Shown here in pieces: positions 25,709 to 30,967 of a DNA stretch of 64,000 nucleotides (the first letter of the stretch is position 1; each line of letters starts with the position of its first letter). The stretch comes from Longimicrobiales bacterium (GTDB lineage: Bacteria > Gemmatimonadota > Gemmatimonadetes > Longimicrobiales > Gaopeijiaceae). The notes beneath the pieces were generated by a model. That model searched no databases. It worked only from the letters and a program-made list of their open reading frames with translations, and was not told the origin of the DNA. The position numbers and the translations under genes are program-made. The stretch covers positions 3,840,001 to 3,904,000 of the forward strand of contig OZ250165.1 in NCBI GenBank assembly GCA_965238005.1, given 5' to 3'.

Positions 25709-26320
25709 TCAGGCTTCCGAGGTAGCCACCTCCACGAGGCCGCGCTCTCGCCTCGGCAGCTTGGCAACCATCGCCAAAGCTTCCTGTCGGCCCGCGTCCG
25801 ACATCTTGGCCCACGTTCGTCGGAGGATTCCCACCATCTTCTCGTCGTCGTGCTTCCGCGCGAGCTCGACGAACTCGTTCTCGAAGAACACCATACAGAT
25901 GGCGTCCTCGAAGAGCTGGACCTCGGGGTCACGCCCGAGTCCGATCTTGCGGAGGAGCGTCTCGACGCGGACGACGGTCGCCTCTTCGTACCCCACCTCC
26001 TCGAGCACTTCACGCGCGATCTCCGCGTGTATTCTGGACAGGTCGCTTCGCCAGCGGCGATACCCCCGACGACCCGCTTCGTACTCGCTCCGGGGCACCT
26101 TCCAGCGCCGAATGTGCTGACACGCGGCCGCGAGGCGAAGAGGAACGGAAGCCTCGGCATCGAAGTGGAGGACCCAGTGCGCCAGGCGCCGATGGTAGTG
26201 GACGGACCACGGAGTTTCGGCGCCCTCCACTGCGAAGGAGCGGGGGTCCTCCCGGTGGGCGGCTTCGAAGCGCGCGATCGCCCCCCCTAGACGCGGATCA
26301 CACTTCGCTTCTTCGCTCAC
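25709..26320 (-). CDS. DUF4202 family protein
   Basis: EDP, LRLAAACQHIRRW..PRSEY..GRRGYRRWR, EDAICMVF, TWAKMS. Confidence 0.85.
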   Translation of the reverse strand: MSEEAKCDPRLGGAIARFEAAHREDPRSFAVEGAETPWSVHYHRRLAHWVLHFDAEASVPLRLAAACQHIRRWKVPRSEYEAGRRGYRRWRSDLSRIHAEIAREVLEEVGYEEATVVRVETLLRKIGLGRDPEVQLFEDAICMVFFENEFVELARKHDDEKMVGILRRTWAKMSDAGRQEALAMVAKLPRRERGLVEVATSEA

Positions 26321-26363: not shown

Positions 26364-26978
26364 CTACGGTCTGGGCACCGCGAGTTGGCCCAGGAGCTCA
26401 TCGACGGTCGGGGAGCTCGGCGTCGTGATCGCCACCACGAATGGCTCCTCGGGGCCCGACACCATGTCGAAGCTCGCGTCTCCGTCCCCGTAGAGTGCCT
26501 TCACGTACTTCTCCAGCGCCGGCCGCACGGCGGCGAACGTCCCAGCGTCGCTGGGCGCCCGGAGCCGGTCGTAGATCCCGAACTCCACCTCGCTCGTACG
26601 GAACCGGTACCGCTCCTCCAGGGCAGGGTCGCTCTCCAGGAGCGACGCGGCCTGCAGCACGGAGCGGAAGGCCCGCGCGATCCCCTCCTCTTCCGTGGCT
26701 TCGGCCTTCCGGCGACCACGATACCGGAGCCCCGGGCGACCGGCGCGCATATCGAAGTAGTAGTGGGCCGTATCGCAGATCAGGACGATGCCGGGGCCCT
26801 TCGGCACGTGCTCGTAGCTCGCCACGTCGATGAGGAGCTCGTCCTCGAGAAGGCTCTCTCTGATCCACCGGTGAAAAACGGGGATCAGCTCCTTCAGACG
26901 CACGCCGGAGGGATCGTCGACGAAGAGCTTGACGCTGATCTCCGACGACGCGAGGGGTCGCAGGGGCTCCTCGGTCAC
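26364..26978 (-). CDS. Hypothetical protein coupled to the sulfite reductase
   Basis: 4-bp overlap with the reductase stop; IPVFHRWI..LIDVASYEHVPKGPGIVLI. Confidence 0.75.
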   Translation of the reverse strand: MTEEPLRPLASSEISVKLFVDDPSGVRLKELIPVFHRWIRESLLEDELLIDVASYEHVPKGPGIVLICDTAHYYFDMRAGRPGLRYRGRRKAEATEEEGIARAFRSVLQAASLLESDPALEERYRFRTSEVEFGIYDRLRAPSDAGTFAAVRPALEKYVKALYGDGDASFDMVSGPEEPFVVAITTPSSPTVDELLGQLAVPRP

Positions 26979-29251
26979 GCGGGTGCTCCGGCGGTCCCCA
27001 TCCTTTCGTAGCAGGCGTATGCCGCCTCGATGAAGAGTTGAGCCTCCTCGACGCGCTCCCGGGCTTGGTCGGGCCTCCCGCCATTCCCTCCGACCTCGTG
27101 CGCTCGGAACAGATAGCTGGCGAACTTCGCTCCCGCGAATCGGTCGTGGAAGCGCTTCGTCTCATGGAAGCGGGTCCTGAACTCTTCCACGATATGATCG
27201 GGGTCGTCGGTGACGTCGAGGAATTCGGTCTTCACCAGAGCCTTCGCGGCGGACAGCATGGCTCGATAGGCCAGTTCCGTGGCCTTCGCCGAAGCCTCCG
27301 CGTCGAGGAAGAGCTGCGCTTCGAAGACCTCGCGCTCGCTGGCTTGCAGCCCGAACTCCACCAGCGGCAGCATCTCGCCCGCGCACTCACCCTCTCCGTA
27401 GTCCTCCATCGTGTACTCACGTGGATCGCCCCAGTCGGAGTAGTAGGAGGGATCTTCCGCGTAGCGAGGGACCGCGGTGAGGTCTTTCAGGAAGTCCTTC
27501 ACCTCCGCCTTGCCGAGGCGCTGAATGAACTCTCCGAAGGTCTCGTCCGCCGCGCGCTCCTTGACATACCGGTCTGTGACCCGCCGAACGACTTCGGGTA
27601 TCTTCTTCGACGGGATCGCGAGCGTCGCCAGGCCGTACGAGCCGGCGTTCTCGGTCCACTTCCCGCCGAGCACGACCTGGAAGTGCGGCACGAGGCGGCC
27701 GTCCTTCTTGCGGCTGATGCCGTAGAAACCGAGGTCAGCGACGTGGTGCTGTCCGCAGGAGTTGAAGCAGCCACTCGCCTTGATCCGCAGGCCCTTGATG
27801 GCGTCATCGGCGTCACCCAGCTGGCTCCGAAGCTCGGCCGCCAGGCCCCGGGACGAAGCGATCCCGAGCTTGCAGGTGTCGGTGCCCGGGCAGGCCGTGA
27901 TGTCCGCGATGCTTTCGGCACCGGCCTCGGCCAGGTCGACGGCCTCGAGGGCCGCGTGGAGGTGTGGGAGGTCGGCCTCCTTCACCCAGCGAAGCACGAT
28001 GTTCTGCTCCACCGTCAGCCGGACGTTGTCGCCCACGAAGTCGCGCGCGATGTCGGCCAGGGACCGCATCTGGTCCGACGTGATGTCTCCAAGCGGCAGC
28101 TTTGCCGTGGCCACCGCGTATCCTGCCTGTCGTTGGGGCCGGACGTTGGTCTGCTGCCAAGCGAGGAAGGCCGCAGAAAAGTCGCCGTTGGTTGGCGGGT
28201 CGAGCGGCCTTCCCTCCCCGAGCGGTCGCTCCTCGTAGGCGTCCAGCTCTTCGAGGTACGCCGTCCAACGGGGATCGTGTGGAAGCGCCGCCCGCTCTTC
28301 GAGCACCAGCTTGCGGAACTCGTCGATGCCGAGCTTGGCCACGAGGAACTTGATCCGTGCGCGCCCCCGATTCTTCTTCTCACCCAGTCGTGCGAAGACT
28401 CGGGCCACGGCCTGGGAAAGGGGCAACAACTCCTGCTCGGTCACAAACTCGTCCAGGAGCTTCGCCTGGTGCGGGATCGCGCCGAGCCCCCCGCCGACGT
28501 AGAAGCCGAACCCGCGCCGTAGCTTGCCGTCCTCCATGAGCTCCCTGGCGATCAGCCCCAGATCGTGCAGGCTCACGAGCCCGCACGCCTCACCCTCACA
28601 GCCCGAAAACGCGACCTTGAACTTGCGGCCGAGGTCCTGTACGTCGGGGTGACCCAGCAAGAACTCTTTGAGTGCCTCAGCGTACGGCGTGACGTCGAAG
28701 GTCTCCGTACGGCACACACCGGCGAGGTGGCAAGCCGTGACGTTGCGCACCGAGTTGCCGCAAGCTTCGCGCGTGGTGATCCCCACCGCGGCCAAGCGTC
28801 GCATGAGGTCGGGAGTGTCGTCGATATGGACGAAGTGGAGTTGGATGTCTTGGCGGGTCGTCACGTGGGAAATCCCGTCCGAGTAGTCCTCAGCCAGCTC
28901 CGCGAGCACGTCCATCTGCTCGGTCGTGACCTTCCCGTATGGGATCTTGATCCGGACCATGCCCGGCGCGTCCCACACGGTTTCGGCACCCTTCGTTTCG
29001 TGTTCCTGATAGCGCAGGCTCCGGTTTTGGGTCCCGTCGTGACGCTGACCGTTGTCGTAGCGCTGGCCGTAGACCCCACGTCGGAGACGAGTCTCCGCGA
29101 ACAGCCGCTCGTCGACCTCGCCTCGACTTCGGAGCTCCATCTGCATCTCGAAGACCTCGATCTCTCGACCGAGCTTGTCGGGGATCCGCCCCTTCAGCTT
29201 CTCACTCCAGGAGCCGGGCGTCCCTGTACTCTCGAGCACGCCTTCCATCAT
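26975..29251 (-). CDS. Siroheme/[4Fe-4S] sulfite (or nitrite) reductase with a C-terminal extension
   Basis: TTRQDIQLH, ACGNSVRN, RKFK, CPGTDTC and SGCFNSCGQH cluster/siroheme ligands. Confidence 0.92.
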   Translation of the reverse strand: MMEGVLESTGTPGSWSEKLKGRIPDKLGREIEVFEMQMELRSRGEVDERLFAETRLRRGVYGQRYDNGQRHDGTQNRSLRYQEHETKGAETVWDAPGMVRIKIPYGKVTTEQMDVLAELAEDYSDGISHVTTRQDIQLHFVHIDDTPDLMRRLAAVGITTREACGNSVRNVTACHLAGVCRTETFDVTPYAEALKEFLLGHPDVQDLGRKFKVAFSGCEGEACGLVSLHDLGLIARELMEDGKLRRGFGFYVGGGLGAIPHQAKLLDEFVTEQELLPLSQAVARVFARLGEKKNRGRARIKFLVAKLGIDEFRKLVLEERAALPHDPRWTAYLEELDAYEERPLGEGRPLDPPTNGDFSAAFLAWQQTNVRPQRQAGYAVATAKLPLGDITSDQMRSLADIARDFVGDNVRLTVEQNIVLRWVKEADLPHLHAALEAVDLAEAGAESIADITACPGTDTCKLGIASSRGLAAELRSQLGDADDAIKGLRIKASGCFNSCGQHHVADLGFYGISRKKDGRLVPHFQVVLGGKWTENAGSYGLATLAIPSKKIPEVVRRVTDRYVKERAADETFGEFIQRLGKAEVKDFLKDLTAVPRYAEDPSYYSDWGDPREYTMEDYGEGECAGEMLPLVEFGLQASEREVFEAQLFLDAEASAKATELAYRAMLSAAKALVKTEFLDVTDDPDHIVEEFRTRFHETKRFHDRFAGAKFASYLFRAHEVGGNGGRPDQARERVEEAQLFIEAAYACYERMGTAGAPA

Positions 29252-29264
29252 CGTTCTCCTTCTC

Positions 29265-30704
29265 TCAGGCAACGCCCGCCGCCGCGCGCCCACCGTCGGC
29301 CACCACGGCGTATTCGTCGTTGCGTTCGCCCTTCAAGACTCCTCCCTCGTTTTCCAGCAGCCGCCGGGCCACCTCGCCTACGATGAGGGTCGCGGGCGAG
29401 CGGAGCTCCGACGCGCGGATTCTCTCGGCTAGCGTAGCGAGGGTTCCGACGACCATCCGTTCGTCGCTGCGGGAGGCGCGGCTCACGGCCACCGCGGGGG
29501 TGTCGGGTGCGCGCCCCTCGGAAGCGAGCCCCTCCAACACGTCTTCGGCCGATCCGAGTCCCATCAACACGATCACGGTTTCCTCTTCGGGAGGAAGCTC
29601 ACCACGCATGCGGCCACCGGCGTCGTGCCCGGTTCGCACCGTGAACCCCTTCGCGAGGCCGCGCTGGGTCAGGGGTGTTCCCGCAGCGGCGGGCGCGGCA
29701 ACCACGGCGCTCACGCCTGGTACAACCTCCCAGGAGATCCCGGCTGCAGTGAGGGCCTCCACTTCCTCGCCCCCCCGCCCGAAGACGAACGGGTCACCCC
29801 CGTGGAGGCGTACCACGCGTCTTCCGGAACTCGCCTCTCGGATCATGAGCGGAACCCTCCGATCCGAGGCTGAGACAACACGCTTGGACGCCCCCCGCGA
29901 ACGGTGCCCTACGTCGACCACCTTCGTGCCCGGAAGCGCGAGTTCCAACACCTCATCCTCCACGAGGGCATCGTGGAGGATGACGTCGGCCCGCTGGATC
30001 CGGTCCAGAGCACGCAACGTCAGAAGCTGCCGGCTGCCCGGTCCCGCACCCACGATCGCCACGGTCCCCGGGTCGAACGGCTCCTCCTCCTCCCAATACA
30101 TGGCCTCCAGGCGGCGCGCGGCCGTCTCCGTGTCACCCCGGTCCACCAGCTTGGTGATGGTGGGATCGAAGAGCGCCCTGAGGAGGCGGCCGCGTTGCCT
30201 GAGGCCCTTGAGGCCTCGAGAGCGAAGGCGGATGAGTAAGTCCGCCACCGACGTCAGGCTGCGGGGAATGGCCGCCTCCAGCAGCCGGCGAAGCTGCCCC
30301 GCCAGGAGCGGCGAGCCGCCGTCGGTGCTGATGGTCATCACCACAGGACCCCGGCGGACGATGGCCGGCGAGTAGAAGTCGCAGAAGGCCGGGTCATCCG
30401 CCGCGTTCACGAGGATGCCCCTAGCCCGGGCCGCTTCCGCCAGTCGGCGATTCACGGCGGGATCGTCCGTGGCGGCCACCACCACCTTGGCCCCCGAGAC
30501 GTCGTCGTCCCGGACGGGCCGCCGGTCGAAGCGCCACACCTCGGGCAGCCACGCCTGCATTTCCGGCGACACGCCTGGAGAGACGAGGTGGATCCTTGCG
30601 CCCGCGTGGATCAGCGGCACGATCTTCTCCGCCGCGACCCCGCCGCCCCCGGCCAGGAGGACGCGCCGGCCTTCCAACCCCACGAGCTGAATCGGATATC
30701 CCAT
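29265..30704 (-). CDS. cysG: Siroheme synthase
   Basis: GGGGVA..K, NAADDPAFCDFY, VGAGPG..LLT, GGDPFVFGRGGEE. Confidence 0.92.
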   Translation of the reverse strand: MGYPIQLVGLEGRRVLLAGGGGVAAEKIVPLIHAGARIHLVSPGVSPEMQAWLPEVWRFDRRPVRDDDVSGAKVVVAATDDPAVNRRLAEAARARGILVNAADDPAFCDFYSPAIVRRGPVVMTISTDGGSPLLAGQLRRLLEAAIPRSLTSVADLLIRLRSRGLKGLRQRGRLLRALFDPTITKLVDRGDTETAARRLEAMYWEEEEPFDPGTVAIVGAGPGSRQLLTLRALDRIQRADVILHDALVEDEVLELALPGTKVVDVGHRSRGASKRVVSASDRRVPLMIREASSGRRVVRLHGGDPFVFGRGGEEVEALTAAGISWEVVPGVSAVVAAPAAAGTPLTQRGLAKGFTVRTGHDAGGRMRGELPPEEETVIVLMGLGSAEDVLEGLASEGRAPDTPAVAVSRASRSDERMVVGTLATLAERIRASELRSPATLIVGEVARRLLENEGGVLKGERNDEYAVVADGGRAAAGVA

Positions 30705-30739: not shown

Positions 30740-30773
30740 AAAAAAAACCCCGACCTCCTCAGGGAAGCCGGGG
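30740..30773 (-). terminator. Intrinsic terminator (attenuator) upstream of cysG
   Basis: Minus strand CCCCGGCTTCC-CTGA-GGAGGTCGGGG-T8, ending 35 nt before the cysG ATG. Confidence 0.85.
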
Positions 30774-30795
30774 CTCGGGAGTCTCGCCGCGTCCG

Positions 30796-30879
30796 CTAGG
30801 GGCAGCCGGCTCCGGACCCGCCCTCCCGGGCCAGAGTCATGCGACAACAGCAACAAGCACAGTGATCAAAGCGGCTCAT
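30796..30879 (-). CDS. Cys-rich leader peptide MSRFDHCACCCCRMTLAREGGSGAGCP
   Basis: 27-aa ORF with upstream AGGGAG; five Cys in codons 7-12; directly precedes the terminator. Confidence 0.8.
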   Translation of the reverse strand: MSRFDHCACCCCRMTLAREGGSGAGCP

Positions 30880-30937
30880 GTTCCAGGTGTCTCCCTGAGC
30901 GGTCGTGCGCCGATGCGTTCTGAATTCCAGGCTATAT

Positions 30938-30967
30938 AGATTAAGAGGACACTCCCGGCCGAGTCAA
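30938..30967 (-). promoter_or_regulatory. Candidate sigma-70 promoter of the cys leader
   Basis: TTGACT-N18-TAATCT in an AT-rich patch. Confidence 0.45.

Follow-up and report, generated by a model that had tools for sequence, protein, structure and literature searches.

A siroheme synthase gene (cysG) in this Longimicrobiales genome is preceded by a short open reading frame (ORF) with a run of Cys codons and by an intrinsic terminator, which raises the question of whether translation of the ORF decides how often the genes behind it are transcribed. The window (the whole stretch of DNA that was analyzed, 64,000 nt) carries these elements on its minus strand. A promoter-like site, a Cys-run ORF, and a terminator are conserved upstream of cysG, and from this conservation and from modeled folds we consider it very probable that the leader of the cysG-sulfite reductase genes is a classical leader-peptide transcription attenuator sensing charged tRNA-Cys. 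The features of that class are present, namely, an upstream ORF (uORF) with clustered Cys codons and an intrinsic terminator before the first gene and, by folding, an excluding antiterminator and a spacing by which a stalled ribosome would free the antiterminator strand and a passing one would cover it.

Leader architecture and operon genes

The 27-codon ORF with five Cys residues at codons 7 to 12 was found as predicted, and so was the T8 terminator 35 nt ahead of the cysG ATG at 30704, whose 14-pair hairpin has a folding energy of −24.0 kcal/mol (Table 1). Codons 7, 9, 10, 11, and 12 read TGT, TGT, TGC, TGT, and TGT, and a sixth Cys follows at codon 26. The further claim that TGT is disfavored held as well: TGT makes up 24% of Cys codons genome-wide (1944 long ORFs), and four of five in the leader run is a significant excess (P = 0.014). 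The genome has one tRNA-Cys, with anticodon GCA. Two other elements of the original prediction were borne out in part. A consensus promoter scan called no promoter, the element at 30967-30938 lying below its threshold; we call the element because it is conserved in homologous loci, with TTG(A/C)(C/T)N-N16-18-TANNNT found in 16/16 homologous upstream regions. The ribosome-binding site proposed for the leader exists as a GGGAG motif, at a long spacing and without conservation. The leader ATG in the window lies 58 nt past the −10 box, too far for a leaderless small ORF (sORF).

Table 1. Features of the cysG leader and of the genes behind it (positions in the window; nt numbers and codons are those of the leader).
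Feature	Positions	Strand	Basis or remark
Promoter candidate, sigma70-type, TTGACT-N18-TAATCT	30938..30967	-	Sequence and conservation
Possible Shine-Dalgarno (SD) sequence GGGAG of leader ORF	30891..30895	-	11 nt to ATG (long); weak, not conserved
Leader ORF, 27 codons, MSRFDHCACCCCRMTLAREGGSGAGCP	30796..30879	-	ORF list; frame kept in relatives
Sensor codons 7-12, 5 Cys	30844..30861	-	Cys at codons 7, 9, 10, 11, 12
Early protector/pause hairpin (predicted), nt 44-70, segment 1:2	30810..30836	-	Folding
Antiterminator 5' strand, nt 53-71, codons 18-24	30809..30827	-	Folding, alignment
GGAGCCGG, weaker second register for terminator-arm pairing	30806..30813	-	Folding, alignment
Inner hairpin, leader stop codon in loop	30786..30806	-	84.5% and 92.6% of cells paired
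Antiterminator 3' strand, nt 97-118, overlaps terminator 5' arm	30762..30783	-	Folding, alignment
Intrinsic terminator, 14 pairs + U8	30740..30776	-	Hairpin 30776-30745, U8 30747-30740
cysG, siroheme synthase, first regulated gene	29265..30704	-	NF007922, 402.5 bits (cut-off 400)
Siroheme/4Fe-4S reductase	26975..29251	-	PF01077, PF03460; alternative GTG start 29293
204-aa gene	26364..26978	-	No Pfam/NCBIfam match; overlaps reductase stop
DUF4202 gene	25709..26320	-	PF13875; in 11/80 related loci

Between the U tract and cysG, a small GAGCT hairpin (30732-30711, minus strand) lies over the cysG ribosome-binding region and may damp cysG translation; the pattern occurs in 9/17 loci. Rfam covariance models, riboswitch and T-box families included, gave four matches, all far below the gathering score (E = 0.36 to 3). 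The whole-leader minimum free energy (MFE) has an uninformative z-score of −0.57, and no second DNA copy of the cysG leader was found in the genome.

The reductase gene is the only NIR_SIR gene of the genome, and no family model passes its cut-off on it. Its best solved relatives are Mycobacterium tuberculosis NirA and plant nitrite reductases, with near-equal scores. At one position the reductase has GRKFK, compared to PRKYK in NirA and RKWN in plant nitrite reductase; the Lys found there in GRKFK and PRKYK presumably goes with sulfite, and we take mycobacterial NirA to be a sulfite reductase. Across 80 related loci, cysH (24/80) and cysG (34/80) stand beside reductase orthologues. The reductase is likely a ferredoxin-type sulfite reductase, judging from sequence and neighboring genes. 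Its C-terminal extension (residues about 600 to 759; 27451-26975, minus strand) resembles HEPN-domain clusters, a match (score 0.91, with PF05168 on 24 to 54% of members) that we treat as a lead only. The 204-aa gene, which likely belongs to the same operon, follows the reductase in 76/80 related loci across phyla and hits only unnamed clusters in the Atlas. Its product may be a partner of sulfite reductases of this type or a factor in their maturation. The operon likely ends with the DUF4202 gene. Among named records, the closest come from Longimicrobiales/Gemmatimonadota, at 75 to 83% identity.

Specificity and conservation of the Cys run

A strict genome scan for an ATG with an SD sequence, a run of one residue, and a T6 tract returned five matches, of which three were Cys runs: the cysG leader and two identical copies of a leader before cysH (identified by PF01507). 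In a looser scan, the ORFs preceding 520 terminator-like sites were scored for Cys within 8 codons. Those with at least four Cys were again only the cysG leader and the leaders of the two cysH copies; they hold five or six Cys per 8 codons, and no site had four. Three-Cys ORFs before terminators occurred at four of the 520 sites, with no sulfur gene behind them. No Cys leader precedes sat, cysK, or cysS in this genome. Upstream of cysH, the looser scan also revealed another, unrelated Cys leader arranged in tandem. The identical cysH copies (G000:C1:1719254-1720528 and 1745062-1746336; loci L026 and L027) are thus each preceded by two unrelated Cys leaders, with three hairpin-plus-U signals, and insertion sequence (IS) elements lie near both. 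Tandem cysH leaders were also seen at L133, L134, and L136, and a decayed second leader at L138.

The same scan recovered a His-run leader (G000:C1:3573748, plus strand) before a hisG-like gene and a Tyr/Phe-run leader (G000:C1:2059390, plus strand) before an aroF-like gene, both genes being presumptively identified by their N-termini. Since His and Tyr/Phe leaders were recovered, the organism uses leader peptides. A leuA-like gene near G000:C1:3475346 also has a terminator ahead of it, and a tRNA-SeC gene is located at G000:C1:1907151-1907247.

Orthologues of cysG (E ≤ 1e-60) were found in 17/251 genomes of the family, spread over six genera with ten from one genus; one locus is cut by a contig end, and the region upstream is complete at the other 16. 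Each of these has kept the promoter pattern, the Cys-run ORF, and the hairpin, so that the Cys codons and terminator proposed for the window recur upstream of every intact orthologue. The leader ORFs have 25 to 32 codons with four to six Cys in the first 16, and the terminator hairpins range from −22 to −31 kcal/mol, with interrupted U tails in some relatives (L044, L046, and L048). At three of the 16 loci (L041, L042, and L047), the leader ATG lies 6 to 9 nt past the −10 box, as for leaderless translation, and from these sequences initiation at the leader appears to be SD-led in some relatives and leaderless in others. The cysG matches at L042 (G229) and L050 (G245) each contain one internal stop.

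Among 14 colinear sequences, codon identity is 0.62 to 0.67 at codons 2 to 8 and 0.95 at codons 9 to 12, where third positions are as conserved as first and second ones (0.95); such fixed third positions would also fit an RNA-level role or shared ancestry. TGT accounts for 48/76 leader Cys codons in the cysG homologues compared to 24% genome-wide. The number and spacing of Cys residues vary (CACCCC, CTCRCC, CRCCC, and CCTCACCC), and codon 18 changes its amino acid freely (AGG, CGG, GGG, and AAG). In the 14 aligned sequences, the stop at codon 28 is TAG in six, TAA in four, and TGA in three, and one ORF stops at codon 26.

Cys leaders are also frequent before cysH. The family held 46 cysH matches, from which 30 upstream regions were cut out, and 28/30 had a Cys ORF plus hairpin; the other two comprise a five-Cys run lacking a standard start and a locus with two Cys. 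At the former (L147), the five-Cys run is followed by a terminator and has no in-frame ATG, GTG, or TTG, and a CTG start is possible. In two more distant families of the class, a Cys ORF, a hairpin of −17 kcal/mol or better, and a T run preceded cysH at 20/25 loci; of the other five, three had the ORF followed by a hairpin that was weak or had no score, and two had neither. Within one of these families (f2), 16/17 cysH loci are operon internal and uninformative, and the single operon-first locus has a leader. Met codons are mixed with Cys in the cysH leaders of L142, L149, L153, L155, L159, L193, and L197 and further in L200, L202, and L209-L214, a mixture that suggests sensing of both sulfur amino acids.

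For the 80 reductase loci, from many phyla, our script counted 22 with at least four Cys on the strand of the gene. Same-strand controls gave 0 for Trp, 0 for Met, 0 for Tyr, 2 for His, and 4 for Phe, and the opposite-strand control for Cys gave 2. Inspection by eye corrected the count to 24/80, as L073 was spurious and three 3-Cys leaders were genuine. By record title, 15 of these leaders are from Acidobacteria/Vicinamibacterales, 6 from Chloroflexota, and 3 from Longimicrobiales (already counted above). No Cys leader was found at the 12 Latescibacterota-titled or 7 Binatia-titled loci, nor upstream of the reductase of G041. Seven loci without a Cys leader (L055, L110, L117, L120, L122, L126, and L128) have what we take, from the sequences, to be a ferredoxin-like ORF, and at several of these the next gene is presumably glutamate-synthase-like; their titles are Latescibacterota and some Gemmatimonadota.

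Recurrence of this kind bears on one alternative, a constitutive terminator with an accidental ORF in front of it. Short ORFs are common in GC-rich DNA, and the four three-Cys ORFs elsewhere in this genome have terminators and no sulfur genes. However, the strand has no upstream gene whose end would call for this terminator, and Cys ORFs recur before sulfur genes at 16/16, 28/30, and 20/25 loci. Chance is thus already contradicted by the conservation data, and we regard it as extremely improbable.

It is also conceivable that the Cys-rich peptide itself is the sensor or the product, through metal- or thiol-redox-dependent arrest of the nascent chain or as a metal-binding peptide with its own terminator. 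Cys clusters bind metals, the enzymes encoded downstream carry siroheme and Fe-S centers, and a C-terminal P-R-E-G recurs in two leaders of the genome. Yet the number and spacing of Cys residues vary, the recurring C-terminal codons form the antiterminator strand while their amino acids change freely, and the leaders at cysH and in other phyla share nothing with the cysG leader except the Cys (often Met) run. Taken together, a role for the peptide is very unlikely.

Ribosome position and the nascent leader fold

At full length, the terminator wins at equilibrium under every ribosome mask (P = 0.99 to 1.0 in the window and ≥0.70 in all 16 sequences), so any antitermination must be kinetic. Nascent RNAs of the 16 sequences, cut at the terminator loop, were folded with the ribosome placed at given codons. 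With the ribosome on the last Cys, all 16 fold a long stem that joins a strand starting at about nt 51 to 55 to the 5' arm of the terminator. In the window, the stem pairs nt 53 to 71 with nt 97 to 118 (−37.9 kcal/mol; about 66 nt) and carries the stop codon in its top loop. The probability that the terminator arm is held upstream is 0.66 to 0.91 with the A site on the last Cys versus 0.10 to 0.56 at the stop codon (16/16 sequences). The mutually exclusive fold anticipated for this leader is thus predicted for nascent RNA, where it depends on ribosome position.

The mean advantage of the terminator is −13.9 kcal/mol without a ribosome, −8.6 kcal/mol with the ribosome on the last Cys, −7.0 kcal/mol one codon further (+1), and −20.6 kcal/mol at +6; in these folds a ribosome stalled on the Cys run leaves the antiterminator in place, and one that has moved on by 5 to 6 codons melts it. 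For footprints of 7 to 15 nt, the profile peaks between 2 codons before and 4 codons after the last Cys, 14 to 15 kcal/mol above the stop state. In the window, with a 10-nt footprint, the peak is at codon 14, two codons beyond the last Cys. A ribosome at Cys12 (−11.2 kcal/mol) makes no difference compared to ribosome-free RNA (−11.7 kcal/mol), and the value at the stop is −19.2 kcal/mol. As modeled, the design of the window leader is that the stem is intact with the ribosome before codon 14 and broken once it is past codon 16. The His, Tyr/Phe, and both cysH leaders have a ribosome-position profile of the same shape.

The original prediction had placed the alternative fold elsewhere, in pairing of GGAGCCGG with CCGGCTTCC. 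Such pairing is possible with one bulge; it is the weaker register, as the main antiterminator starts at nt 53 (−39.0 kcal/mol for the main helix versus −30.8 kcal/mol in the window). The weaker register has 86.6% of cells paired, with no excess over shuffles (100, 274, and 160 of 500), and enters the MFE structure in 4/16 sequences only once the ribosome covers nt 53 to 61. It repeats the same complementarity internally and, according to these folds, may serve as a fallback.

Covariation was assessed in an alignment (A2) of 14/16 sequences, two divergent ones being left out. In the terminator, the best-conserved helix, 98.5% of cells are paired, and three pairs have changes in both partners; the antiterminator has 87.1% of cells paired and four such pairs. 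Slid controls reached at most 69.9% (terminator) and 64.1% (antiterminator). Of 500 shuffles for the antiterminator, 12 reached the percentage paired, 78 the number of double-changed pairs, and 29 the score. This modest covariation is consistent with a helix and is not proof of one, because the sequences are closely related (a single genus supplies 10 of the 17). The register of the predicted protector hairpin at nt 44 to 70 differs among genera; if that of the commonest genus is applied, 76% of cells are paired.

Ribosome-free RNA of 118 to 121 nt likewise folds into the antiterminator. This, together with the conserved third positions in the Cys run and the weak SD sequence of the leader, could point to a translation-independent RNA switch bound by a ligand or protein, in which the ORF is incidental and the UGU repeats serve in binding or as part of the structure. 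However, no Rfam family scored above threshold; the ATG and reading frame are retained, as is the stop, for which relatives use all three stop codons; three loci place the ATG 6 to 9 nt past the −10 box, as in leaderless translation; and unrelated leaders converge on in-frame Cys codons. We therefore judge such a switch very unlikely.

A somewhat different possibility is that stalling at Cys acts mainly on translation of cysG, as in the mycobacterial type, or adds a translational layer, with the terminator secondary. Translational control is the only experimentally demonstrated Cys leader mechanism according to the accessible text of Canestrari et al. (10.1101/834739), and the GAGCT hairpin would cover the ribosome-binding region at about half of the loci. 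Against this, the best-conserved helix is the terminator with its U tail, the partner of the leader strand in the ribosome-dependent fold is the terminator arm and not the cysG SD sequence, and the SD hairpin, located downstream of the U tract, is absent from 8/17 loci. Mainly translational control is improbable, if marginally less so than action through the peptide.

In the transcription attenuator that we favor, scarce Cys-tRNA would make the ribosome wait on codons 7 to 12, leaving leader nt 53 to 71 free. These would pair with nt 97 to 118 in a long stem of about −38 kcal/mol, which would hold the 5' arm of the terminator before the 3' arm leaves RNA polymerase and so permit read-through into cysG. 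With plentiful Cys, the ribosome would pass codon 17 and reach the stop codon in the top loop of the stem; the stem would be melted by its passage, the terminator would form, and the RNA would end at U8. The scheme supposes translation of the leader ORF, a pause by which ribosome and polymerase are coupled, a sufficient lifetime of the antiterminator, which is a kinetic rather than an equilibrium state, and cysteine as the in vivo signal. Counting against it are the dominance of the terminator at equilibrium, the modest covariation among related sequences, the value at Cys12 in the window, the fixed third positions, the weak SD sequence, the interrupted U tails, and the lack of Cys leaders at sat, cysK, and cysS. 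Five metatranscriptomes matched 7 to 9% of sequence words; four were mapped at 88% likeness, and one gave a 180-nt contig over 30740-30896 (depth 2.8; 13 differences, i.e., from a relative), with scattered short pieces on cysG and the reductase gene. RNA contigs show neither ends nor levels and are therefore of no use as evidence here.

Known attenuators and the meaning of the leader

Classical attenuators include Escherichia coli trpL, Salmonella hisL, pheL, thrL, and leuL. Like the trpL/hisL type, the cysG leader combines a uORF holding a run of end-product codons with an antiterminator that overlaps the terminator, and the position of the ribosome would decide between them. In contrast to that type, cysteine would be sensed and a siroheme synthase and sulfite reductase controlled, and the antiterminator stem is long, spanning about 66 nt, and closes on a loop that contains the stop codon. 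Here the 1:2 protector shows little strength and varies, so the state without translation is not predicted to be clearly off.

The trp/his/leu-type layout of the original prediction is supported, while its expectation that Cys leaders are known mainly from Actinobacteria needs widening, as one has also been predicted before cysS of Rhodobacterales. This element, uORFC-8-2 (Brewer et al. 2021, PMC8632094), is, in the accessible part of the paper, a predicted Cys uORF plus intrinsic terminator with read-through proposed on stalling, as here. By the description given there, it has two tandem Cys codons (14 and 15), mostly UGC, and is found only before Rhodobacterales cysS, whereas the present leaders, compared by description, have four to six Cys, mostly UGU, and precede assimilation genes in Gemmatimonadota; cysS of the present genome has no Cys leader.

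In mycobacteria, polycysteine leaderless sORFs form a "Cys ribulon" that acts on translation, as stated in the available sections of Canestrari et al. (10.1101/834739), which in 2020 also described uORF attenuation for cysteine as not previously reported. Poly-Cys sORFs at several independent sulfur loci with a shared tRNA-Cys response, here a proposed one, are common to that account and to ours, and the leaders of some relatives here look leaderless. At the mycobacterial locus tested, the same sections report an effect on translation initiation and not on transcription termination, whereas here the terminator is the conserved output; the leader pairs with its arm and not with a downstream SD sequence, and the window leader, unlike the leaderless sORFs, has a 5' untranslated region of about 50 nt. 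For Actinobacteria, leader ORFs with a Cys run were predicted upstream of cys operons by Seliverstov et al. 2005 (PMC1262725); as far as the accessible text goes, these have no conserved terminator hairpins, Rho being proposed, and carry the Cys run near the stop, whereas the present leader has a conserved terminator and a Cys run 15 codons before the stop. The accessible parts of PMC2965389, PMC8079986, and PMC13236596 yielded nothing beyond mycobacteria. Our literature search, with most subscription journals outside its range, found no published terminator-type Cys attenuator for sulfate assimilation genes or for Gemmatimonadota. A comparative survey of attenuators, reportedly by Lopatovskaya et al. 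in 2010, may hold Cys predictions. The mechanism is thus textbook knowledge, and what was not found in print is the combination of signal, target, and phylum.

Considering the leaders as a group, it is an evenly balanced possibility that a terminator-based cysteine ribulon runs sulfate assimilation in Gemmatimonadota, Vicinamibacterales, and Anaerolineae, with each sulfur operon (cysG-sir, cysH, and cysC-cysH) having its own Cys attenuator, independently evolved, sometimes tandem, and tuned through UGU wobble. Several poorly cultured phyla would then sense sulfur mainly through ribosome speed rather than through a transcription factor. For the locus itself, the leader would mark the NirA-like enzyme as a sulfite and not a nitrite reductase and would tie the unnamed 204-aa gene to sulfur assimilation. 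If the proposed attenuation is true, it would provide a compact (about 230 nt) cysteine sensor, fill the cysteine gap among amino acid attenuators for an assimilation pathway, and extend leader-peptide control to Gemmatimonadota.
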